Shown: in pieces, positions 1,694-37,387 of the stretch
Layout: each line of letters opens with the position of its first letter
How positions within the stretch are numbered: position 1 is the stretch's first letter
NCBI GenBank assembly: GCA_963817245.1
Contig: CAWFNQ010000002.1
Location: 35,281-99,280 of the forward strand
Direction of reading: 5' to 3'
Length of the DNA stretch: 64,000 bases
DNA from: an uncultured Chloroflexia bacterium
GTDB taxonomy: Bacteria; Chloroflexota; Limnocylindria; Limnocylindrales; CSP1-4
Made by a program: the position numbers and the translations under genes
Notes under the pieces: generated by a model
The model's database searches: none
Told to the model about the DNA's origin: nothing
Seen by the model: the letters and a program-made list of their open reading frames with translations, nothing else

Positions 1694-3482
1694 TCAGGAC
1701 GCGGTCAATACCCTGCCCGGGCCTCCTTCCGATCCCCGAGCCGCTTCCGGACCTTGGGCGACGATCCGGCGTGCCAGCGTCTCGGCATCCAGGAACCCCT
1801 CCCCCGGCACTCGATACCGGAGGTTGGCCTGTATCAGCGACGTGAACCGTAGGTTGCAGGCGCGCCAGCGATCTGCATCCGTGATCACATCGACCGGAGG
1901 ACCGTCGGCCACGACCCGACCGTCCCTGAACAGAAGGATACGGTCTGCATACGTCAATGCAAGGTCTGCGTCATGCGTGACGAGGTACAGGCTGCGCAGC
2001 CCTGGGATGGCCACGACGGCACGCATGAACGCGTTTGCCGTCCGGTGATCCTGGCCGGCCGACGGTTCGTCGAGGATCAGGGTCGGCGGGCGGAGGGCGA
2101 GGGCGATGGCGAGCGCCAGCCGCTTCTGCTGTCCGAACGAGAGCGCCAGGGGTGGCCGCTCCTCGATCTCCTCGATCGTGTCGAGGGCCGTACGCCTGAG
2201 GCAGTCCTCCAGCAAGGCATCGAAGGTCGCCGGGTCACGCTTCATGTTCTGCGGACCGAACAGGATCTCCTCGCGGACCGTCCTTGAGAAGAGCATCTGG
2301 CTGGGGCTCTGGAAGACGTAGCCGAACTCGGTGGCGAGCTGGGCCGTCTTGCGCGTCCCCATCGCTGCGCCGTCGATGAGGATCGCGCCGTCGGTGACGG
2401 GGAGCAGCCGCATGGCGGTGCGGAACAGCGTGGTCTTGCCCGAGCCGTTCGGGCCGAGCACGGCGACGATCTCGTCGGGCCCCAGGCTGGCATCGACGCC
2501 GCGCAGGACCTCGTAGCCGTCGATGGCGGCACGAACGGCGCTGAACCTGAGCCGGTCGGTCGAGGCTCCAGCCGCTGTGGTCGGCGTAGCCGGATCCGGC
2601 GTCTCGTTGGGGGCCGCCCGCGCCAGCCCGGCGTCGACGGTCGGCGTCTTTCGCTCGCGTTCGAGGATGACCTCGAACGGCAGCTTGACCGCGTCGCGGG
2701 TCGGCCATCGTCAGGAAGCCGTCGATCGGGCCGAGGTAGCGAGTCCGGCCCTCATCGAGATACAGGATCGCGGTCGGGCCGCAGGTCGAGCGCCTCCTCG
2801 ACCCGGTGCTCGACGATGAGGATGGCGTTGCCCTCGTCGGCAAGGGCCCGGAGCATCGCGAGGAGTCGTTCCGCCGTCGCCGGGTCGAGGTTGGCCAGCG
2901 GCTCGTCGACGACGTAGACGCGAGGCCGCATCATCAGGATCCCGGCCACCGCCAGCAGCTGCCGCTCGCCGCCGGACAGCTGGTGGGTCTCGCGGCCGAC
3001 GAGCGACTCGATCCCGCGCCTGCTTGGCGACCTCGCGGATCCGGTCCCGGATCTGCTCGCGCGGGACGCCCATGTTCTCGGGCCCGAACGCCAGCTCGGC
3101 CTCGACCGTCGCTCCCACGATCTGCTTCGCTGGGTCCTGCAGGACGGTCCCGATCGTCCGCCCGATGTCGCGCAGCTTCGCCTCGGTCGTGAAGCGCGCC
3201 GGCGACCCGGACGGTCCCGGAGAGCTCGCCCGGGTAGGCGTGGGGGATCAGGCCGTTGATCGCCCGGATGAGGGTGCTCTTGCCGCAGCCCGACGGACCC
3301 GCGACGAGCAGCACCTCGCCTGGGTGGATCGTGAGCCCGATGTCCCAGATGGCCGGCTCGGTGGCCCGCCGATAGCGGAAGGTGAGGCCCTCGATCTCGA
3401 CGAGCGGCGCGGGCGCATCGGTCGCGGTCGCGGTCGCGGTCACGGGAGCGCGTGGGTCGGGCCGGGCCTCGGCGTCAGCCAC
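1694..3482 (-). pseudogene. Fused duplicated ECF/ABC ATPase (EcfA1-EcfA2-like, two nucleotide-binding domains), about 4 frame changes
   Basis: Domain 1 has Walker A GPSGCGKST (ORF 2934-3482), then VEAELAFGPENMGVPREQIRDRI (2711-3118), then Walker B VYVVDEPLANLD...ILIVEHR (2752-2949). The linker was hand-translated (DAVKLPFEVILERERK...). Domain 2 has GPNGSGKTT, LSFGQQKRLALA and LILDEPSAGQD (1694-2461). The pieces lie in four different frames. Confidence 0.8.
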
Positions 3483-12866: not shown

Positions 12867-14486
12867 TCAGTTGGGAGTCGAGCCGGGCAGCACCGCGACG
12901 TTCAGCCAGCGCGACCCGGTCGCGCGGCGCATGACGAACGTGAGATCGAACGGCTTCGTCTCGGTCGACAGGAGCTTGCCCGCGGCGTCGTAGGTCTCCT
13001 CGGTCACCGTGCCGGTCGAATCGAGACCCAGGCTCAGGCCGGTCTGCAATCCGAACGGCCGGCGGATCGACATGTCGATGGCGTCGAACGTGTAGTGCGC
13101 AATGGTCGCCTTCCCCGACGACGTGGCCTCCTGCAACCGCTGCTGCATCTCGAGCAGGCGGTCGCCGTGGTCGATCGCCGGGAGGATGGACGCGTCGCGC
13201 CGGAGGAGCGCCTGGTTCTCGAGCTCGATGTTCTCGGCAAGCGTCTGGACGATGTCTCGCGCGCCCTTGTCGGTGATCTCGTTGTCCCAGTCCGTGACGT
13301 CCTTGCCGACCGTGATGGCCGGGAACGTCGCCGGATCGACCTGGTGGGGCACCTGGTCGAGGACCTCGGCCATGTCCGGCCCGATGAGGCCGCGCGCCGG
13401 CGTCCCGGCGGCGACGATCCCGACGCCGAGCCCGAAGACGGCGACGACCAGGACGAGCACCCCGGCGATCCCGCGGAGGGCGCCGGCGCCCGGCTTGCCG
13501 ATGGCCAGTCGCGAAGCGAAGCGACCGACCTGGTCGCCCGCGGACCGCGGCTCGGGGACGAGCCGGTCGAGGATCGGGCGGGCCGCGCAGATGACGACGA
13601 GGCCCGCGAGCAGGCCCACCTTCGTCCCGAACTCGTTGGTCTGCGGCGCCATGAGCAGCGTGCTCGTGATCGCGACGAGCAGGCCGAACAGCACGCGACC
13701 GACCTGCCCACCCGGCGTCGTCTTCGGATCCGTGATCATGAAGAACAGGAAGATCAGGACCTCCGGCGAGGTGACGATCACCCGCCAGAAGTCGAACCCG
13801 CAGACGGGCGCGAACGCCCAGTTCGCGGTCATGCAATGACCGGAGCCGGCGAGGATCCCGACGCCGATCGTGAGCGAGACCCAGAACGTGGCGGCCAGGA
13901 CCAGCAGGTGCAGCCGACGGGTGATGAGCACGCCGCCGGTGATGATCACGGCGTACGCGATGAGCATCCACGGGTCGGTGAGTGGCGCCCACCAGAAATC
14001 GAGCGGCTCGACCCGCGAGCTCCCGAGGACGACGAAGGTGACGACGAGCCCGATGTTCGACGGGTTGAAGACGTGCGTCCCGCGGTACTTGATGACGTAC
14101 TTCGTCAGGAGCGAGAGTCCGGCGACGACCGCGAAGACGTACCAGGCGTAGGTGTTCCACGGGTCGTCCGGCGGCGTGCCCACGACGCGCAGGATCAGGG
14201 CCACGCCGCTGCCGGTGAGCATGGCGCTGGCCGGCCACACGAAGGCGCGCGACGACCGGAAGGTCAGGGCGACCTCGATGATCGCGCAGGTGATGATCGC
14301 CGCGAGGATCTGCGGGATGCTGACCCGGAAGTGGAGCCCCACCTGACCGAGGACGTGGATCGTGATGATCACCGACGCGACGTGCAGGCGCGGATCCCGG
14401 ATGCTCGGCAGGAAGACCGGATAGGTCGTGCCGCCCAGCGTGAGAGTCCGCGACGGCGGCCGGGCAGGGGTCGGCGCGGCGGTCAT
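12867..14486 (-). CDS. Polytopic membrane protein (N-terminal NqrB/RnfD-like region, tentative) with a C-terminal extracytoplasmic domain
   Basis: 539-aa intact ORF with about 9 predicted TM segments (e.g. HVFNPSNIGLVVTFVVLG), then a soluble tail (EITDKGARDIVQTLAENIELENQALLRRD...). Family assignment is from memory of the FNP motif only. Confidence 0.6.
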   Translation of the reverse strand: MTAAPTPARPPSRTLTLGGTTYPVFLPSIRDPRLHVASVIITIHVLGQVGLHFRVSIPQILAAIITCAIIEVALTFRSSRAFVWPASAMLTGSGVALILRVVGTPPDDPWNTYAWYVFAVVAGLSLLTKYVIKYRGTHVFNPSNIGLVVTFVVLGSSRVEPLDFWWAPLTDPWMLIAYAVIITGGVLITRRLHLLVLAATFWVSLTIGVGILAGSGHCMTANWAFAPVCGFDFWRVIVTSPEVLIFLFFMITDPKTTPGGQVGRVLFGLLVAITSTLLMAPQTNEFGTKVGLLAGLVVICAARPILDRLVPEPRSAGDQVGRFASRLAIGKPGAGALRGIAGVLVLVVAVFGLGVGIVAAGTPARGLIGPDMAEVLDQVPHQVDPATFPAITVGKDVTDWDNEITDKGARDIVQTLAENIELENQALLRRDASILPAIDHGDRLLEMQQRLQEATSSGKATIAHYTFDAIDMSIRRPFGLQTGLSLGLDSTGTVTEETYDAAGKLLSTETKPFDLTFVMRRATGSRWLNVAVLPGSTPN

Positions 14487-14564
14487 CGTTCGATCCTTGA
14501 CACCGGGCGATGTGTAACACCGCGGCCCGTGCCCGGCAAGTCAGGCCTGGTTGCCGCGCGCCTC

Positions 14565-14593
14565 TTGCATGAAATCTAGACTATGCGTATAGT
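14565..14593 (+). promoter_or_regulatory. Candidate sigma-A-type promoter for the dap leader: TTGCAT -17 nt- TATAGT
   Basis: -35 TTGCAT is at 14565-70 and -10 TATAGT at 14588-93, in a locally AT-rich patch. The ATG at 14601 lies 7 nt after the -10, consistent with a leaderless start. Palindrome GACTAT-GCGT-ATAGTC (14579-94) overlaps the -10. Confidence 0.5.
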
Positions 14594-14600
14594 CACGCAC

Positions 14601-14681
14601 ATGCACCGTCACCTCTTCTCGAGCGACTCGAAGAAGAAGCTCTGGCGGCCCTGCCGGGAGGCACGGGCCCTGGGGCTCTAA
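14601..14681 (+). CDS. Candidate 26-codon leader peptide MHRHLFSSDSKKKLWRPCREARALGL with three consecutive Lys codons
   Basis: Hand translation from ATG 14601 to TAA 14679-81, with AAG AAG AAG at 14631-39. It lies between the candidate promoter and a terminator upstream of the lysine/DAP biosynthesis operon. Confidence 0.45.
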   Translation: MHRHLFSSDSKKKLWRPCREARALGL

Positions 14682-14730
14682 CGGCGCGTCGACGACGAAC
14701 CGGGGCCTCCAGGGAACGGAGGCTCCAGGG

Positions 14731-14763
14731 GCCGCGGCACCACGATGGTGACCGCGGCTTTTT
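14731..14763 (+). terminator. Intrinsic terminator/attenuator upstream of dapB
   Basis: GCCGCGGCACC (14731-41) pairs with GGTGaCCGCGGC (14747-58) with one bulge and loop ACGAT. It is followed by TTTTT (14759-63), 51 nt before the dapB ATG. Confidence 0.65.
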
Positions 14764-14814
14764 CATGCCTCCCTCCGGCGGCCCCTCACCGACGAACAGT
14801 GAGGGCAGACCGAT

Positions 14815-15540
14815 ATGCAGATCACGATCCTCGGCGACGGGCCGCTCGGCCGGGCCGTCGCCGACACCGCCCGCGAAGCCGGGCACGACGTCCGGATCGT
14901 CGGCCGCGCGGCCGGCGGCCGACATGACCCCGGTTCGCTCGGCGGCGATGTCGTCGTGGAGTGCTCACGGGCGGACGCGGTGGCCACGAACGTGGCGGCC
15001 GCACTCGACGCGGGCGTCCGGCGACTCGTCATCGCCACGACCGGCTGGGGTGCCGACCGCGAGCTGATCGCCGGCCTGGTCGCTGGACGGGACGCGGCGG
15101 CCGTCGCCTCGTCGAACTTCAGTCTCGGCGTCGCGCTCTTCGGGCGGCTCGTCGACGCCGCCGTCGACCTCTTCGGCCGGGTCGACGGCTTCGATCCGTA
15201 TCTCGTCGAATGGCACCGCCGGGCGAAGCGCGACCGACCGTCCGGCACGGCGCGCGACCTCGCCGAGCGGATCGCCGCCCGGCATCCGGGTCTCGCGACG
15301 CCCGACGACCTCGAGGTCGTGTCGGTGCGGGCCGGCTCGTCGCCGGGCATGCACCTCGTCGGGTTCGACGCCGCGGGCGAGACCCTCGAACTCCGGCTGA
15401 CGGCCCGGGACCGAACGGCCTACGCCGCCGGGATCCTCGCCGCGGCCGACTGGCTGACGCGTGCCGATCGACCGGCCGGCCTCCACCCCTTCGACCCGAT
15501 CGTCGACGAGCTCATCGCTCGCCGCGCGATCGCCGCCTAG
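14815..15540 (+). CDS. dapB: 4-hydroxy-tetrahydrodipicolinate reductase
   Basis: MQITILGDGPLG...VIATTGW...EWHRRAKRDRPSGTA...SVRAGSSPGMHLVGF are DapB signature regions. 241 aa, intact. Confidence 0.85.
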   Translation: MQITILGDGPLGRAVADTAREAGHDVRIVGRAAGGRHDPGSLGGDVVVECSRADAVATNVAAALDAGVRRLVIATTGWGADRELIAGLVAGRDAAAVASSNFSLGVALFGRLVDAAVDLFGRVDGFDPYLVEWHRRAKRDRPSGTARDLAERIAARHPGLATPDDLEVVSVRAGSSPGMHLVGFDAAGETLELRLTARDRTAYAAGILAAADWLTRADRPAGLHPFDPIVDELIARRAIAA

Positions 15541-15613
15541 TCCACGCGCGACCACGCCCCGATCCGTCGCACCACCCGACGACACCGCCCGACCGACCCG
15601 AAAGGAGATCCCG

Positions 15614-16594
15614 ATGACCCGCACCGTCCGATCCACCCGCCCGATGCTCCGCGGCGCGTTCACGGCCCTCGTGACCCCGTTCAGTGCCGACGGCACCCTC
15701 GACGAGGCCGCGTTCCGACGGCTCGTCCGCTGGCAGATCCTCGCCGGGATCGACGGGCTGGTCCCGTGTGGCACGACCGGCGAGTCCCCCACCCTTACGG
15801 AGGCCGAGCGCGAGCGGCTCATCGCCGCGACCGTCGAGGTCGCCACGGAACGGGACGCCCGGCCTCGCGTCCGCGTGGTCGCCGGGACTGGCACCAACGA
15901 CACGGCCGCCACGATCCGGGCGACGCGCCGCGCCGCCGAGCTCGGCGCCGATGCCGCATTGGTCGTCGCCCCGTACTACAACCGGCCCGACGGCCGGATG
16001 CTCGAGGCGCATTACCGGGCCGTCGCCGACGAGGGCGACCTGCCGATCGTCGTCTACAACGTCCCGAGCCGGACGGGCACGAACGTCGACGCCGACACGT
16101 TCCTGCGGCTCGCGGAGCACCCGCGCGTGGTCGCGGTCAAGGAGGCGAGCGGCAACCTCGACCAGATCGCCCGGATCTGCCGCGACCGTCCGCGCGACGT
16201 CGCCGTCCTCGCGGGCGACGATGCCTGGACGCTGGCGGTCCTGGCGATGGGCGGTGACGGCGTCGTGTCGGTCGCCTCGAACGAGGTCCCAGGCGAGCTC
16301 GTCGGCCTATGTGCGGCGGCGACGGCTGGTGACTGGGACGGCGCACGACGGATCCACGAACGCTGGCTGCCGCTGTTCCAGGGCAACTTCCGCGGCGGAC
16401 CGAACCCGGTCCCGGCGAAGGCCGCCCTGGCCCTCATGGGCCTGATCGAGACGGACACCGTCCGGGCGCCCCTGTTGCCGCTCGACCCGGACGCCCGCGC
16501 CGCGATGGCCACGACGCTTCGCGGCCTCGGCCTGCTCGAGGCGGCCGGCGGCCGCATGTCGACGCCGGCGGCGACGCAGGAGGCCGTGGCATGA
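15614..16594 (+). CDS. dapA: 4-hydroxy-tetrahydrodipicolinate synthase
   Basis: GAFTALVTPFSADGTLDEAAF...GIDGLVPCGTTGESPTLT...VVAPYYNRP...IVVYNVPSRTG...AVKEASGN is DapA-like. AAAGGAG SD at 15601-07 and ATG at 15614. Confidence 0.85.
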   Translation: MTRTVRSTRPMLRGAFTALVTPFSADGTLDEAAFRRLVRWQILAGIDGLVPCGTTGESPTLTEAERERLIAATVEVATERDARPRVRVVAGTGTNDTAATIRATRRAAELGADAALVVAPYYNRPDGRMLEAHYRAVADEGDLPIVVYNVPSRTGTNVDADTFLRLAEHPRVVAVKEASGNLDQIARICRDRPRDVAVLAGDDAWTLAVLAMGGDGVVSVASNEVPGELVGLCAAATAGDWDGARRIHERWLPLFQGNFRGGPNPVPAKAALALMGLIETDTVRAPLLPLDPDARAAMATTLRGLGLLEAAGGRMSTPAATQEAVA

Positions 16595-17443
16595 CCGCGA
16601 CCTTCGACACGGTCGGTGCCATCGAGCGCGACCCGGCCCTTCGGACCGAGGCCGGCGTGGTCGACGCTGACGCCGGACGAGCTGCTGGCCGCGCTCGAAG
16701 CCGGGGAGCTGCGCGCCGCGGAGCCCGATCCATCGAGCCCGGACGGCTGGCGGGTGCGGGCCGAGGTCAAGACGGCGATCCTCGGCTGCTTCGCCGACCG
16801 GACGACGACGTCGTGGTCGATCGGTCCACTGACCTTCCGCGACCGCGCGGCGGTCCGGCCTCGGGACGACCTCGCGGACGGGCCGTGGCGGATCGTCCCC
16901 GGGGGCACCTCGATCCGCCGCGGGGCGTTCCTCGGCGAGTCCGTCGTCGTGATGCCGCCGTCGTACGTCAACGTCGGGGCGTGGGTCGGGGCCGGCACGA
17001 TGGTCGACTCGCACGTGCTCGTCGGCTCGTGCGCCCAGATCGGCGAGCGGGTCCACCTCTCGGCCGGGGTCACCATCGGCGGCGTCCTCGAACCGGCCGG
17101 CGCCCGCCCGGTCATCGTCGAGGACGACGCGTTCATCGGCGCCGGCAGCCGGTTGCTCGACGGCGTGCTCGTGGGTCGCGGCGCGGTCATCGCCGCCGGC
17201 GTCACGCTCACCGGGACCTCGCGGTTGTACGACCTGGTGCGCGAACGGGTGCTCGAGGGGACGGCCGACCGGCCACTCGTCGTCCCGTCGGATGCCGTGG
17301 TCGTGCCGGGCGCCCGGCCCGTGTCGGCCGCGCCCGGGTCGTTCGGGGCGGCCCACGGCCTGACCATCGCGACCGCCGTCCTGGTCAAGGACCGCGATGC
17401 CGGGACGTCGGCCCGGGTCGCGCTCGAAGCCGCGCTCCGATGA
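16591..17443 (+). CDS. dapD: 2,3,4,5-tetrahydropyridine-2,6-dicarboxylate N-succinyltransferase; probable frame change in the first ~25 codons (uninterrupted ORF starts at GTG 16616)
   Basis: RIVPGGTSIRRGAFLGESVVVMPPSYVNVGAWVGAGTMVDSHVLVGSCAQIGERVHLSAGVTIGGVLEP is the hexapeptide-repeat DapD core. ATG 16591 overlaps the dapA stop (ATGA) and reads MTATFDTVGAIERDPALRTEAG, resembling DapD N-termini, but in a different frame from the body. Confidence 0.8.
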
Positions 17444-18782
17444 GTCCGATCGGCGCCCCGGCGGCGGGCACCGCCGGGCCCGCCCGAGCGCCGGTGCCGA
17501 CCGAGGACGACGGGCTCATCCGGGGAGGTCGCATCGGCGGCGTCGAGGCCGCGGAGCTGGCGCGACGGTTCGGCACGCCGCTCTACGTCTACGACCTCGG
17601 TGTCGTCGACCGACGGGTCGCCGCCCTGCGCGCCGCGCTGCCTCCCGACGTCGACATCGCGTACGCCGTGAAGGCGAACCCGTCGCTCGCCGTCGTCGCG
17701 CATCTCGGACGGTCACGGGCTCGGCGCGGACGTGGCGTCGGCCGGCGAACTGGCCACCGCCATCCGCGCGGGGATCGAGCCCGGCAGGATCGTGATGACC
17801 GGGCCGGGCAAGCGCGACGACGAGCTGGAGGCCGCGGTCGAAGCCGGGATCCGCGCCGTCACGGTCGAGTCGCCCGGTGAGCTGGCACGCCTCGAGGCGA
17901 TCGCCGCCGGCCGCGGACGCCGCGTCCCGGTGATGCTTCGCGCCGCTCGGACGGGCGGCGTCCCCGACGAAGCCGTGCGGCTCATCGGCGATGCCGGCGC
18001 GGGCAAGTTCGGCATGGACGATGCGGATCTGCTCCGCGCCGCGATGCGGGCCGTCCGCTCGCCGCACCTCGACTGGCTCGGGCTGCATGCCTTCGGCGCA
18101 TCCAACGTCCGGGATGCGAACGCCCTGGTCGAGCATGCGCGCGGCGACGGCGGCGGCCGCCCGCGACCTGGCCCTCCGGACCGGGTCCACGGTCGCGCTC
18201 GTCGACATCGGCGGGGGCCTGGGGATCCCGTACGGCCCGGGCGAACGCGACCTCGACATCGAGGCGCTCGGGCTCGGGCCTTGCCGCGATGGCCGCCGAT
18301 CTGGGCGGACGATCCGGTCCTCGCCGGCGCTCGCCTCCTGATCGAACCCGGCCGGTTCCTGGTCGGTCCCGCCGGCGCCTACCTCGCCCGCGTCGTCGAT
18401 CGGAAGGTCGTCGATGGCTCGACGGTGGTCGTGCTCGACGGCGGCGTCCACCACGTGCTCCGACCCGCCCTCGTCCGCGAGCCGCACCGGGTGGTCGGCG
18501 GTCGGCCGCGCCGACGGGCCCGTCGAGCCGGTCACCGTCGTCGGCCCGCTGTGTACCGGCCTCGACGTGCTTGCCCGCCGGACCCAGATGTCCCGTCCCG
18601 AAGTCGGCGACCTGCTCGCCGTGCTGGACGTCGGGGCGTACGGGTTCACCGAGTCGATGCCGTTCTTCCTGTCGCACCCGATCCCGGCGGAGGTGGTCGT
18701 CCAGGCCGGCCGCGTCGCGCTCGTGCGCCCGCGGCAGGACCCCGGGGAGTGGCTCGCGCGCCAGACCCTGCCGGCCTGGTGA
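17440..18782 (+). pseudogene. lysA: Diaminopimelate decarboxylase, about 5 frame changes
   Basis: The ATG overlaps the dapD stop (ATGA). Pieces in different frames are: FGTPLYVYDLGVVDRRVAALRAALPPDVDIAYAVKANPSLAVV; GADVASAGELATAIRAGI...GKFGMD...LDWLGLHAFGASN; VALVDIGGGLGIPYGPGE; LAAMAADL; ADDPVLAGARLLIEPGRFLVGPAG; VTVVGPLCTGLDVLA...GDLLAVLDVGAYGFTESMPFFLSHP. Confidence 0.85.
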
Positions 18783-18937
18783 CGCGGCGTCGGGCCGGGC
18801 GGGCCAAGGCCGCCTATCTCCGCCAAGGTCGATAGCGAACTCTTCATCGTTCGGGATGCGGCATCGCTACCCGCGCTCGCTAGGGTGAGCTCATCGGCCC
18901 GCCCAGGACGCCGAGCCAGACGAAGGAATGCCGCTCC

Positions 18938-19393: not shown

Positions 19394-19457
19394 CCGTCGT
19401 CCCGGGCAGGGGCGGGCCGCTGGCATCGCCGTCCGGCGCGGTATCATCCGCGGGCGT

Positions 19458-19534
19458 CCGCCCGTAGCTCAGTGGATCAGAGCGACTGACTTCGGATCAG
19501 TAGGTCGGGGGTTCGAATCCCTCCGGGCGGGCCA
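19458..19534 (+). tRNA. tRNA-Arg (anticodon UCG)
   Basis: Hand-folded cloverleaf: acceptor CCGCCCG/CGGGCGG, D arm GCTC-AGTGGATCA-GAGC, anticodon stem ACTGA/TCAGT with loop CTTCGGA (anticodon TCG), T arm GGGGG-TTCGAAT-CCCTC, discriminator G, encoded CCA. Confidence 0.9.
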
Positions 19535-19536: not shown

Positions 19537-19690
19537 TCGCCGCCATCACGGCCGGCGGATCATCACCGTCAACGCGCGGCCGAAGCGGTCAGTACCACCG
19601 ATGCGTCCGGACCTGCCGCGTGTGCGCCGCCCGAGCCGCGATGCGCAGACGCGAGCGCGAGATCATCCGGTCGCACCGTATGCTCGCTGG

Positions 19691-22357
19691 ATGGCGAGCC
19701 AGCTGTCCCGGTCGCGCGCTGCTTCCCTCCCCGTCGGCACGCTGACGTTCCTGTTCACGGACATCGAGGGATCGACCCGTCTCGTGGCTGCCCTGGGACC
19801 TGCGTTCGGCCCGCTTATCGAGCGCCACCACGCCGTCTTGCGCGCCGCGATCGGGGAGGCCGGTGGGATCGAGGTCTCCACCGAGGGAGACGCATTCTTC
19901 GTCGTCTTCCAGAGCGCCATTGCGGCAGTGGCGGGGACGGTCGCCGCACAGCGTTCCCTCGCGGCCGAGCCCTGGCTCCCCGGGGTCGGCGCCATCCGCG
20001 TTCGGATGGGACTCCACACGGGCGAGGGCATCCTGGGCGGAGAGGACTACGTGGGCCTCGATGTCCATCGGACGGCGCGGATCGCGGCGGCCGCCCACGG
20101 CGGCCAGATCCTCGTCTCCGAGGCGACGGCGACCCTCGTGCGAGACTCGCTGCCGGGAGATCTGCGATTGCGCGAACTCGGCGAGTTCCGGCTCAAGGAT
20201 CTCGACAAGCCCGAGCGCCTAGCCCAGCTCTCCGGGCCGGGCCTTTCCGACGACTTCCCGCCGCCGCGCACGCTGGAGACTCCGTCCAACCTGCCGACCG
20301 AGGTGACGACCTTCGTTGGCCGTGAACGCGAGGTCGGCGAGGTCTGCGAACTGGTGCGTCGGTCGCGGCTCGTGACGCTGACAGGCCCCGGCGGGTCTGG
20401 CAAGACACGGCTCAGCCTTCGCGTGGCCGAGCAGCTCCAGCCGGAGTACGCGAGCGGCGCCTTCTTCGTGGAGCTCGCCCCGATCAGCGACGCTGGCTTG
20501 ATCCCGACGACCATCGCCCAGGCGATCGGTCTCCGCGAGGACCCGCAGTGGCCGATCGTCGAGCTCCTTGAGGCGCACCTGCGCGATCTGCACCTGCTGC
20601 TCATCGCCGACAACTTCGAGCAGGTCGTCGATGGCGCACCGGTGGTGGGTCGGCTCCTCATGGCCGCGCCACACCTGACCGTCCTCGCGTCAAGCCGCGA
20701 GGTCCTTCACCTCCGGGGCGAGCAGGAGTATCCGGTCCCGCCGCTGGGCGTCCCCGACCCCCGCGACCTGCCGCCGCCCGAATCGCTCACTCGGTTCGAT
20801 GCGGTCGCGCTCTTCATCCAGCGCGCGCGTGCCGTGCGCCCCGACTTCGAGCTCGACGCTCAGAACGCATCGGCGGTCGCCGCCATCTGCATCCGCCTTG
20901 ACGGCCTCCCCCTCGCCATCGAGCTGGCCGCGGCCCGCATCAAGCTCTTCGATCCGACAGCGATCCTCGCACGGCTCGACAGGAGCTTGACGCTCCTGAC
21001 GAGCAGCGAACGCGATATCCCCGAGCGACAGCGCACCCTGCGCGGGGCCATCGCCTGGAGCCAAGACCTGCTGGACGAGCCGGAGCGCGTCCTCTTGAGA
21101 CGGCTCGCCGTGTTCGTCGGCAGCTGTACCGTCGACGGTGTGCTGGCAGTCTGCGACCCGGACGGCGAGCTTGATCTCGACATGCTCGACGCCCTGGGCT
21201 CGCTCGTCGACAAGAGTCTCCTGAAGCGAGTCGGATCGCCGGATGGCGAGCCCCGCTTCCTCATGTTGCAGACCATTCGCGACTACGGGCTGGAGCGGCT
21301 CATCGAGAGCGGTGAGGCAGAGCTGGTCCAGCGCCGGCACGAAGATCACTTCGTGGCCCTCGCACGGGCGGCCGAGCCCGAGCTCCTCGGCGCCCGCCCG
21401 ACGGAGTGGCTCGACCTCCTTGATGCCGAGCGGGACGACCTACGGGCGGCGATCCAGCGAGCGGCTGACGATGGGCGGATCGAGGTGGCCCTCGACGCGG
21501 CCGCGGCGCTGTGGCGGTTCTGGCAGCAGCGGGGACACCTGGTCGAGGGCCGCGAGACGCTCCGGGCGCTGCTCGACCTACCCACGGCGGCCAACCCGAC
21601 CGGGGCCCGCGCCAGGGCGCTCGGCGGCCTCGGCGGCGTGGCGTACTGGCAGGCTGACATCGCCACTGCCCAGCGCGCCTATGCGGAAGCCGTCTCCATC
21701 GAGCGCGGGCTCGATGACCGGGCCGGGCTCGCTGAAGCGCTATACAACGCCGGGTTCGTCGATGCGCTCATCGGCGATAGTCCTCGCGCTCGGGCCGAGT
21801 ACGACGAGGCGATCCGCATCTACGAGGCGATCGGGAACCGCAAGGGCCTGCTGGACGTTCGCGAGGCGCTTGTCTTCATCCACCTGCACTCCGGTGATCT
21901 GTCGGCGGCACGCGACGTCGAACGGCAGACGCTGGCGGACTTCCGGATCGCGGGCGAGTCCTTGCGGATCGCCAGCGCCCTGAGCGCCGGCACCCTGATT
22001 GACGTGCTGGACGGGGAGTACGAGGCGGCCCATGAGAGCCTCGACGAGGCACTCGCCATGTTCCGTGCGGCGGGCGATATGCAGCGCGTCTCCAGCCTCC
22101 TCACCATGGCGGCGGCCTTAGCGCTCGGCGAGGGCGACGCCGAGCGTGCCGCACGCCTCAGCGGTGCCGCCGCGGTGCTGATGGAACCGCTGGGCCACGT
22201 CGCCACGCCGATGCAGCTCCTGCGGTTGGATGACCCTGTGCCTGCGGCCCGAGCGGCTCTGGGCGACGACGCCTTCGATGGCGCGTATGCAGCGGGACGG
22301 TCGCTGAGCCTCGACGAGGCCCTCGAGCTGGCGCGCGCGAGGACGGCACCGACCTGA
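19691..22357 (+). CDS. Class III adenylate/guanylate cyclase domain fused to a P-loop NTPase (NB-ARC/AAA-like) and TPR repeats (STAND-type signalling protein)
   Basis: LTFLFTDIEGSTRL...GIEVSTEGDAFFVVF...VRMGLHTGE...GLDVHRTARIAAAAHGGQILVS is the cyclase domain. FVGREREVGEV...LVTLTGPGGSGKTRL is the Walker A. LLIADNFEQV is Walker B-like. The C-terminal ~400 aa are TPR-like. ATG 19691 (MASQLSR) is preferred over the ORF-track start 19601. Confidence 0.85.
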   Translation: MASQLSRSRAASLPVGTLTFLFTDIEGSTRLVAALGPAFGPLIERHHAVLRAAIGEAGGIEVSTEGDAFFVVFQSAIAAVAGTVAAQRSLAAEPWLPGVGAIRVRMGLHTGEGILGGEDYVGLDVHRTARIAAAAHGGQILVSEATATLVRDSLPGDLRLRELGEFRLKDLDKPERLAQLSGPGLSDDFPPPRTLETPSNLPTEVTTFVGREREVGEVCELVRRSRLVTLTGPGGSGKTRLSLRVAEQLQPEYASGAFFVELAPISDAGLIPTTIAQAIGLREDPQWPIVELLEAHLRDLHLLLIADNFEQVVDGAPVVGRLLMAAPHLTVLASSREVLHLRGEQEYPVPPLGVPDPRDLPPPESLTRFDAVALFIQRARAVRPDFELDAQNASAVAAICIRLDGLPLAIELAAARIKLFDPTAILARLDRSLTLLTSSERDIPERQRTLRGAIAWSQDLLDEPERVLLRRLAVFVGSCTVDGVLAVCDPDGELDLDMLDALGSLVDKSLLKRVGSPDGEPRFLMLQTIRDYGLERLIESGEAELVQRRHEDHFVALARAAEPELLGARPTEWLDLLDAERDDLRAAIQRAADDGRIEVALDAAAALWRFWQQRGHLVEGRETLRALLDLPTAANPTGARARALGGLGGVAYWQADIATAQRAYAEAVSIERGLDDRAGLAEALYNAGFVDALIGDSPRARAEYDEAIRIYEAIGNRKGLLDVREALVFIHLHSGDLSAARDVERQTLADFRIAGESLRIASALSAGTLIDVLDGEYEAAHESLDEALAMFRAAGDMQRVSSLLTMAAALALGEGDAERAARLSGAAAVLMEPLGHVATPMQLLRLDDPVPAARAALGDDAFDGAYAAGRSLSLDEALELARARTAPT

Positions 22358-37052: not shown

Positions 37053-37387
37053 TCCCGCAAGACGTCCTCGACCTGCTCAACAACCTGACGATCTTCGTCC
37101 TGGCGATCCTCGTCGGGTTCGCGGTCATCAGCAAGGTCCCGGCCACGCTCCACACCCCGCTGATGTCGGGCGCCAACTCGATCCATGGGATCGTGCTCGT
37201 CGGCGCGATGATCATCGCCGCCGAGGTGAACGATCCGATCGGCTACTTCCTCGCGCTCGTGGCCGTGGCATTCGCGTCGATGAACGTCGTCGGCGGCTAC
37301 GTGGTCACCGACCGGATGCTCCAGATGTTCAAGAAGAAGCCTGCGGCTCCCAAGCCCGCCGAGGCGGACGCGGAGGCCCAGGCCTAG
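37049..37387 (+). CDS. pntAB: NAD(P) transhydrogenase subunit alpha, part 2 (membrane)
   Basis: LTIFVLAILVGFAVISKVPATLHTPLMSGANSIHGIVLVGA...NVVGGYVVTDRMLQMF. The GTG overlaps the pntAA stop. Confidence 0.9.
   Translation: MIPQDVLDLLNNLTIFVLAILVGFAVISKVPATLHTPLMSGANSIHGIVLVGAMIIAAEVNDPIGYFLALVAVAFASMNVVGGYVVTDRMLQMFKKKPAAPKPAEADAEAQA

Follow-up and report, generated by a model that had tools for sequence, protein, structure and literature searches.

We analysed a 64,000-nucleotide stretch of DNA from an uncultured Chloroflexia bacterium (contig CAWFNQ010000002.1, positions 35,281 to 99,280 of the forward strand; hereafter the window), which carries a lysine biosynthesis operon, dapB-dapA-dapD-lysA, preceded by a short leader. 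The first-pass annotation had proposed that this leader is a ribosome-mediated lysine attenuator, built from a promoter, a short open reading frame (ORF) with a run of lysine codons, a series of hairpins and an intrinsic terminator. Reading positions 14565-14814 directly, we found all of the claimed leader elements where they had been placed, and profile matches agreed with the identities given to the four downstream genes. The features of the locus are listed below; hairpins are named P1 to P4, and the strands that enter the alternative pairings are named S1 to S6.

14565-14570, plus strand: -35 hexamer TTGCAT, read from the sequence
14588-14593, plus strand: -10 hexamer TATAGT, at a 17-nt spacing from the -35 and 7 nt before the leader ATG
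14601-14681, plus strand: leader ORF of 26 codons plus the stop codon TAA (14679-14681), encoding MHRHLFSSDSKKKLWRPCREARALGL
14631-14639, plus strand: putative regulatory Lys codons AAG AAG AAG, numbered -14, -11 and -8 relative to G14645
14614-14637, plus strand: hairpin P1, in which CUUCU pairs with the Lys codons (-10.3 kcal/mol)
14639-14676, plus strand: hairpin P2 (-28.7 kcal/mol; -17.4 kcal/mol without its lower stem)
14682-14702, plus strand: P3, a small and variable hairpin that aligns poorly (-8.7 kcal/mol)
14703-14725, plus strand: hairpin P4 (-18.6 kcal/mol), with S3 as 5' arm (GGGCCUCC) and S4 as 3' arm (GGAGGCUC)
14728-14763, plus strand: intrinsic terminator, comprising S5 (14728-14741), a loop, S6 (14747-14758) and a U tract (14759-14763)
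14645-14735, plus strand: proposed antiterminator helix, comprising S1:S5 (14645-14652 with 14728-14735), P2 tip:S4 and S2:S3 (14667-14678 with 14703-14715)
14782-14805, plus strand: hairpin sequestering the Shine-Dalgarno (SD) sequence of dapB (GAGGG, 14801-14805) by pairing of CCCCUCAC with GUGAGGG (-11.0 kcal/mol)
14815-15540, plus strand: dapB (4-hydroxy-tetrahydrodipicolinate reductase), the first gene under the predicted control (DapB_C, 84.5 bits; TIGR00036, 95.9 bits, below its 122-bit cutoff)
15461-16594 (ORF limits), plus strand: dapA (TIGR00674, 299.9 bits, above cutoff)
16616-17443, plus strand: dapD (tetrahydrodipicolinate N-succinyltransferase; NF008808, 259 bits, above its 204-bit cutoff)
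17533-18835, plus strand: lysA (diaminopimelate decarboxylase), whose pieces occupy two or more reading frames in the window

The dapB ATG at 14815 lies 51 nt past the T run of the terminator, and the true start of dapA is probably downstream of the dapB stop codon.

Conservation of the leader in related genomes

With the DapB protein we retrieved 80 loci from a species-representative genome collection. All of them come from Chloroflexota metagenome-assembled genomes (MAGs), mostly labelled Limnocylindria or Limnocylindrales, and their DapB proteins are 48-81% identical to that of the window. A covariance model built from 50 leaders found the leader directly 5' of dapB in 80/80 loci (35-200 bits), and 79 complete copies entered a census of ORFs and codons. 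The co-occurrence of short ORF, Lys codons and terminator in relatives, which had been put forward as a check on the attenuator proposal, is conserved, with the ORF present in 79/79 copies and the terminator in 80/80 loci.

The leader ORF was recovered as claimed, with its ATG at 14601 and AAG AAG AAG at 14631-14639, and every complete homologue retains its start, frame and stop. The start codon (ATG in 71 copies, GTG in 8) lies 33-45 nt before a CGG codon, and the in-frame stop, located in or just past P2, follows at +33, +24, +27 or +30 nt from that codon. All three stop codons are used; those at +33 are TGA in 35 copies, TAA in 11 and TAG in 10. Where a subfamily has lost 1 nt from the 3' arm of P2 or carries a substitution there, a new in-frame TAG has arisen close to the original position. 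All 79 copies have AAG as codon -8; codon -14 is Lys in 77/79, with 75 AAG and two AAA. Codon -11 between them is unconstrained and varies at all three bases, being AAG in 50 copies and otherwise TCG, CAG, TCC, GCG, ACC, ACA or GCC. Fifteen sequences have an additional Lys codon at -20, and reading of the peptides indicates that these are mostly the ones without Lys at -11 (K-P-K-S-K types). All homologues have the Lys codons at a fixed distance from P2. The three-base periodicity of Lys/any/Lys, together with the synonymous AAA, points to a signal at the level of codons. The small number of AAA synonyms is attributable to codon bias, since the operon itself has 9 AAG and no AAA.

The leader peptides of 18-26 amino acids contain 2-4 Lys each, compared with 0.75% in the proteins of the operon (9 Lys among 1201 residues). 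By chance, three Lys would occur in 26 residues with a probability of about 1e-3, and we regard them as a real enrichment because the operon proteins are so poor in Lys. This poverty may fit enzymes that are needed under lysine limitation, or may simply reflect a genome of 71% GC. The tail of the peptide, LWRPCREARALGL, is near-invariant, yet compensatory changes in the RNA alter its residues; as residues change wherever the RNA covaries, the conserved tail appears to be a by-product of RNA constraint on P2 and not of selection on the peptide. Judging from the aligned sequences, the conservation of the frame has features that RNA structure does not explain, and the comparative data favour a translated leader with Lys codons over a merely structured RNA.

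A promoter of the form TTGnnn, 17-19 nt, NAnnnT was found by strict pattern in 62/79 homologues. TTGCAT is the commonest -35 (34 of these 62), and by eye most of the remaining 17 homologues are spaced alike, their -10 being AAnnnT or TAGGGT. In the 79 complete homologues the start codon follows the -10 after 4-10 nt, with a mode of 7. Conserved as it is, this geometry between -10 and RTG fits a leaderless mRNA, with a predicted transcript start at the start codon. A simple consensus scan of the window for promoters and terminators reported neither the promoter nor the terminator of the leader, likely because TTGCAT matches TTGACA at 3/6 positions and the terminator stem is bulged. In the main family (window 14583-14594 and the same position in L001-L031), conservation extends beyond the -10 hexamer (TATGCGTATRGT), and there is a partial inverted repeat between this extended region and the -35 (TTGCAT ... 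ATGCG); the extension may represent a longer promoter element or an operator for an additional regulator. One sub-lineage has an unusual promoter-like arrangement, TTGACA, 7 nt, TAGGGT (or TAGCGT), 6-9 nt and the start codon, in front of Lys leaders (the regions L059:4773, L076:4768 and L077:1697) and also of the Met-codon leaders of L059, L076 and L166 described below. This TTGACA is not a normal -35, because it is too near the -10-like TAGGGT.

The 232-nt leader folds far more stably than its dinucleotide shuffles (z = -4.97; 0/200 shuffles as good). A hairpin previously read at 14647-14669 is present, but it is only the upper part of the larger P2 at 14639-14676, whose strands are S1 (GCGGCCCU, 14645-14652) and S2, the 3' arm at 14667-14678, which extends 2 nt past the base of the hairpin. 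The terminator was borne out as an 11-bp GC stem at 14731-14758 followed by TTTTT at 14759-14763, with one bulged A and -24.4 kcal/mol. Pairs changed on both sides in 6/16 cases in P2 (for example UGCC/GGCA to AGCC/GGCU, UUCC/GGAA or UGUC/GACA), in 6/8 cases in P4 and in 7/14 cases in the terminator; the three structures together have 19 two-sided changes compared with 4.2 in shuffles, and 0/500 shuffles reach 19. An inner pair of P1 covaries from G-C to C-G in the main family, and P1 is lost in distant subfamilies. P3 carries a conserved CGGCGCG right after the stop codon and forms the apex of the alternative helix. The homologues were folded sequence by sequence; RNAalifold on the model-based alignment was set aside because it lost P2 through register shifts in divergent rows.

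The strand running from S1 to S2 (14645-14678) is complementary from end to end to the strand running from S3 to S5 (14703-14735). The resulting helix is the minimum free energy (MFE) structure, at -60.0 kcal/mol, of 14639-14736, the RNA made before S6, while P2, P3 and P4 together give about -56 kcal/mol. Across 85 aligned sequences, 89% of the cells of the alternative helix pair (98% in S1:S5), and the duplex energies of -40 to -56 kcal/mol have a median z of -3.9 relative to shuffles, with z < -2 in 81/82 sequences. The first-pass annotation had suggested that 14666-14675 pairs with 14724-14733 and so competes with the last two structures. This pairing exists (-14.9 kcal/mol, one mismatch), but 14667-14678 with 14703-14715 (-21.1 kcal/mol) and 14645-14652 with 14728-14735 (-16.6 kcal/mol) are stronger, and the longer helix of S1..S2 with S3..S5 is better supported as the competitor; the shorter pairing is possibly an alternative or partial antiterminator. 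Masking of a ribosome on the Lys codon, in transcripts ending before S6, made the alternative helix the predicted fold of most homologues. Truncated transcripts were used because masking of the full leader is uninformative, the terminator always winning.

Between the terminator and dapB, a hairpin burying the SD sequence was found as claimed, at 14782-14805. The dapB SD sequence is paired in 72/81 folded regions, several of which appear to have a wrongly picked start codon. The arms of the hairpin covary by eye (CUCAC/GUGAG, CUCG/CGAG and CUCC/GGAG), and the hairpin is missing from the most divergent subfamily. A conserved CCUCC and GGCGGCCCCU (14769-14786) lie between the terminator and this hairpin. 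By eye, GCGGCCCCU at 14778-14786 is perfectly complementary to AGGGGCCGC at 14727-14735 in the 5' arm of the terminator, and GCGGCCCCU resembles S1. Through this complementarity, read-through may be coupled to freeing of the ribosome-binding site of dapB, and the hairpin itself would be an accessory, second layer acting on translation.

Methionine-codon paralogues of the leader

Eight paralogous leaders, representing seven distinct sequences because L203 and L204 are identical upstream, have Met codons at the same -14/-8 positions relative to S1. Six of them lie ahead of metY-metX (L052, L069, L076, L201, L202 and L203) and two ahead of a thrC-like gene (L059 and L166).

L052, 1639-1834: Met leader upstream of metY-metX, MMSM type
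L069, 1308-1517: Met leader upstream of metY-metX, MMSM type
L076, 8811-8990: Met leader upstream of metY, C-M-C-M
L201, L202 and L203/L204, about 1200-1500: Met leaders upstream of metY-metX, M-M-A/S-M, reached via MetY homologues
L059, 2669-2800: Met leader before the thrC-like gene, M-A-M (..IMAMPGRP..)
L166, minus strand, about 3170-3450 in reverse-complement coordinates: Met leader before the thrC-like gene (..TMAMPGRP..)

The leaders of L052 and L069 appeared as weak matches to the covariance model about 3 kb 5' of the dapB leader. They share its scaffold, namely S1 (GCGGCCCC), a P4-like hairpin and S5/S6 (GGGGCCGCGG...CCGCGG) with a U tract, and their peptides read ...S-M-M-S-M-(S/P)-G-R-P..., with ATG at -17, -14 and -8. 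The gene that follows is metY (homocysteine synthase; TIGR01326, 684.6 bits against a cutoff of 495.1), and then comes metX. The Met leaders upstream of metY-metX show leaderless geometry. In the Met leaders the tip of P2 is entirely different, and S1, S5 and S6 are kept. Since Met codons fill the -14/-8 positions in front of methionine genes, codon identity tracks the regulated pathway, which is predicted by a sensor read by ribosomes and not by a ligand-binding aptamer. By their sequence, the leaders upstream of metY-metX are candidate methionine-sensing leader-peptide attenuators. The threonine-synthase-like proteins of L059 and L166 are 72% identical and have an N-terminal Cys-rich motif; they may be ThrC-like enzymes of methionine biosynthesis, or the leader may act in control of the Met/Thr branch point.

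As a tentative generalization, to which we give slightly less than even odds, Limnocylindria-type Chloroflexota may use one modular leaderless scaffold, consisting of S1 GCGGCCC, P2, P4 and the GGGGCCGCGG terminator, with specificity set by codons -14/-8. Further versions for other amino acids may exist. A codon-repeat regular expression run over 780 kb returned Lys and Met leaders only, the other matches looking like coding sequence. Among the matches listed for the metagenome pattern GCGGCCC N55-85 GGGCCGCG N10-30 CGCGGC there were GC-rich chance ones and one real leader, the Met-type L166. An RNAfold-based terminator scan of the window found no second attenuator; a Thr/Arg-rich candidate on the minus strand, near 37338, was rejected, as it apparently lies within coding sequence.

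Proposed attenuation mechanism and alternative explanations

The conserved ORF, the fixed positions of the Lys codons and the reuse of the scaffold with Met codons before methionine genes support the earlier proposal. From these comparisons we consider it likely that the leader is a ribosome-mediated transcription attenuator that senses the supply of lysyl-tRNA and controls dapB-dapA-dapD-lysA. Transcription would begin with the A of ATG 14601 or a neighbouring nucleotide, and the leader ORF would thus be translated as a leaderless mRNA. In the nascent RNA, P2 (14639-14676) would form first, followed by P4 (14703-14725) and the terminator (14731-14758 with its run of five U), and transcription would stop before dapB. 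By forming first, P2 would normally trap the RNA on the path to termination, and we propose it as both anti-antiterminator and pause hairpin. When charged tRNA-Lys is scarce, the ribosome would stall with a Lys codon in the A site (-8, at 14637-14639, or -14); its leading edge would reach the base of P2 and melt the lower stem, removing about 11 kcal/mol. The freed S2 (14667-14678) would pair with S3 (14703-14715) as S3 emerges, P4 could not form because S2 occupies S3, and S4 and S5 would zip onto the unfolded P2 until S1 (14645-14652) is paired with S5 (14728-14735). With the 5' arm of the terminator sequestered, RNA polymerase would read through. When lysine is plentiful, the ribosome would translate as far as the stop codon, which lies at the foot of P2, and be released, after which P2, P4 and the terminator would form. 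The choice between the states would depend on ribosome release and on refolding of P2, as in the trp model. It must be kinetic, since the two states are nearly iso-energetic and equilibrium folding does not separate the ribosome states.

Several observations weigh against this mechanism or parts of it. The antiterminator is drawn mainly from conserved complementarity; 5/8 of the S1:S5 pairs never vary, and the test of pairing in the alternative helix used a structure derived from the window sequence itself. We therefore treat the exact antiterminator pairing, in which few pairs covary, as a prediction, in the same way as translation of the ORF and stalling of the ribosome. S1:S5 is also predicted when the ribosome is masked at the stop codon (59-66/82 sequences), the MFE structure of the full leader contains the terminator under every ribosome mask, and a ribosome stalled at codon -8 would overlap S1 in part if the widest footprint is assumed. 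The leader has no more than two or three regulatory codons, and some homologues, such as L004 and L035, have a weak U tract. Finally, many of the unpaired nucleotides are almost invariant, including GGGA in the P2 loop, AGGGAAC in the P4 loop and the CGGCGCG after the stop codon, which is not obviously required by a simple attenuator. The almost invariant loops may also bind a factor or ligand, which would make the leader a dual sensor of ribosome and RNA.

The almost invariant loops also bear on whether the leader is instead a riboswitch of a new class for lysine, diaminopimelate (DAP) or a related ligand, with P2-P4 as aptamer, the terminator as expression platform and the ORF incidental. 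A core of about 50 nt from the Lys codons through P2 is conserved without synonymous drift, loops included, the hairpins covary, the fold is unusually stable (z = -4.97), and lysine operons are classically controlled by riboswitches. We favoured such a pure-RNA reading at first and dropped it in view of the conserved ORF, the codon counts and the Met paralogues. All 79 complete copies keep the start, frame and stop despite indels, and the Lys/any/Lys period of three bases comes with the AAA synonym in two sequences. Exchange of two codons outside the conserved hairpins would not retarget an aptamer, as the Met-codon scaffold before methionine genes would demand, and the tip of P2 is entirely different in Met leaders that keep S1, S5 and S6. 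A search of the whole window against Rfam at gathering score gave no L-box, T-box or other relevant match in the leader, and a search of 14400-14900 at E values up to 10 gave no relevant family, including the L-box (RF00168), the T-box (RF00230) and leader families. We therefore judge a new riboswitch to be unlikely. A T-box-like leader that binds tRNA or a protein and presents the AAG or AUG triplets as specifier-like sequences, with no translation, is more doubtful still. T-boxes are known in Chloroflexi, the identity of the triplets matches the amino acid of the pathway, Lys or Met, and ACCA/UGGU in the terminator resembles an interaction with a tRNA 3' end. The lack of a T-box match at E up to 10 speaks against such a leader, as does the lack by eye of a conserved UGGN bulge. 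The terminator tip of the Met leaders is unrelated (UUUCC...GGAA), and the triplets of the main family lie in the paired strand of P1 and not in a specifier loop. Such a leader would also leave unexplained the in-frame stops and the RTG conserved at the predicted 5' end of the transcript.

We give equally little weight to the idea that the leader acts mainly on dapB translation or mRNA stability, through the SD hairpin or reinitiation, with the terminator being constitutive or a transcript-end signal. The conserved anti-SD/SD hairpin at 14782-14805, CCUCC and GGCGGCCCCU past the terminator, and the perfect complementarity of S5 AGGGGCCGC to GCGGCCCCU would all suit it. Yet the most divergent subfamily, which is without the SD hairpin, keeps the ORF, P2, P4 and the terminator; no parts of the leader are more conserved than the terminator and its competitor helix, and a constitutive 11-bp GC terminator ahead of an essential biosynthetic operon makes little sense. 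Least credible of all is a functional small peptide or nascent arrest peptide whose sequence, and not its codons, matters. Its K-x-K resembles a +X+ motif, and K/R-x-K/R motifs are known macrolide-dependent stalling sites (PMC12583479); the tail KLWRPCREARALGL also looks highly conserved. The residues nevertheless vary where the RNA covaries (C to S/F, E to M/L/T/K, A to E/T and W to R/L/M/G), the N-terminal half is unconserved, the M-x-M of the Met paralogues is not a +X+ motif, and the downstream genes are biosynthetic and not resistance genes.

Known attenuators and neighbouring features

A lysine attenuator of this kind would share with the proteobacterial attenuators (trp, his, leu, thr, ilv and pheA) a short ORF rich in codons for the end product, a stop codon at the foot of the first hairpin, mutually exclusive hairpins and an intrinsic terminator before the first structural gene. 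It would differ from them in sensing Lys, in serving a DAP-pathway operon and in its occurrence in Chloroflexota. Its start is predicted to be leaderless, whereas theirs are led by a Shine-Dalgarno sequence. P2, P4, the terminator and one long alternative helix take the place of the 1:2, 2:3 and 3:4 pairings, and only 2-3 regulatory codons, fixed at -14 and -8, are present. Rfam holds Trp_leader, His_leader, Leu_leader and Thr_leader, and no leader family matches here at E up to 10. The L-box (RF00168) controls genes of lysine biosynthesis and transport, commonly via a terminator, but it is a five-way junction that needs no ORF, whereas the aligned leaders indicate a conserved frame in a simple series of hairpins. 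We rejected membership in the L-box family, which had no match either at gathering score or with E relaxed to 10, and in the T-box family, with no RF00230 match at E up to 10 and no conserved UGGN bulge by eye.

A Lys leader-peptide attenuator was reportedly described by Tsubouchi et al. (J Biol Chem 2005) for the alpha-aminoadipate lysine cluster of Thermus thermophilus; it is said to have tandem Lys codons and lysine-dependent attenuation in a GC-rich host with many leaderless mRNAs. That leader would serve the alpha-aminoadipate/LysW pathway, in place of the DAP pathway, and belongs to a different phylum. If this description holds, the leader-peptide principle is not unprecedented for lysine. 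Corynebacterium and mycobacterial poly-Cys upstream ORFs are counted among the leaderless leader-peptide attenuators of Actinobacteria. Leaderless leader-peptide attenuators have been mapped by RNA-seq in Streptomyces lividans, including leuL, trpL, ilvL, a putative metL and others (PMC8079986). They resemble the leaders described here in the GC-rich genome, the ORF at the 5' end of the transcript, the TAnnnT-type -10 about 6-7 nt upstream and the hairpins, often followed by a U-rich tract. The putative Met-dependent leader of S. lividans (...ARCMCRRMCAF, then stop) resembles our M-x-M and C-M-C-M leaders. Lysine is mentioned 0 times in PMC8079986, the phylum is different, and the leaders described here comprise Lys and Met versions on one RNA scaffold conserved over 80 species-level genomes. 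Leaderless genes have been predicted in some Chloroflexi (PMC3160421). By analogy, the dapB leader would work like the trp, his and leu attenuators and even more like the leaderless leader peptides of S. lividans. A full-text literature search returned no Lys-codon attenuator for a DAP-pathway operon and no attenuator of any kind in the Limnocylindria lineage. The kind of system is already known; what is new is its probable specificity for lysine in front of dapB-dapA-dapD-lysA, the lineage and the scaffold held in common with Met-codon paralogues.

For lysine operons of the DAP pathway, a Lys-codon attenuator would be a third solution beside the textbook control by riboswitch or protein, and it would be the first concrete model of regulation in a soil and freshwater lineage that is abundant worldwide and mostly uncultured. 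The scaffold is the same in the Lys and Met versions, with two codons and the P2 tip as the chief differences, and the two versions may serve as a natural experiment on how attenuator specificity evolves. If the modular scaffold holds true, it would be a naturally reprogrammable sensor of tRNA charging, including a rare attenuator with Met codons, and the leader would be an attractive part for synthetic sensors of this type. The covariance model could be used to annotate the leader and the regulation of the operon in Chloroflexota MAGs.

The lysA gene is interrupted in the window. Its N-terminus is in the frame of ORF 16591-17880 and the remainder in that of 17732-18835, with a frame break near 17701-17732; in the relative L002, both pieces are contiguous in a single frame. 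Stretches that do not align at about 18140-18300 and past about 18475 hint at more breaks, and comparable frame changes in lysA occur in the other MFD-labelled MAGs L038, L004 and L001. The split looks more like indel errors in the assembly than like a pseudogene. The divergent neighbour on the other side of the leader (12867-14486, minus strand) encodes a 539-amino-acid membrane protein, whose sole similarity, to NqrB/RnfD, is weak and below cutoff. Directly 3' of the lysine operon is a tRNA-Arg gene (anticodon TCG, 19458-19534), ahead of which is a promoter-like CTGGCA, 16 nt, TATCAT at 19420-19447. Also beside the operon, 19601-22357 encodes a 918-amino-acid protein, presumably with a role in signalling or regulation, that has an adenylate/guanylate cyclase domain, an AAA/STAND-type ATPase and TPR repeats.

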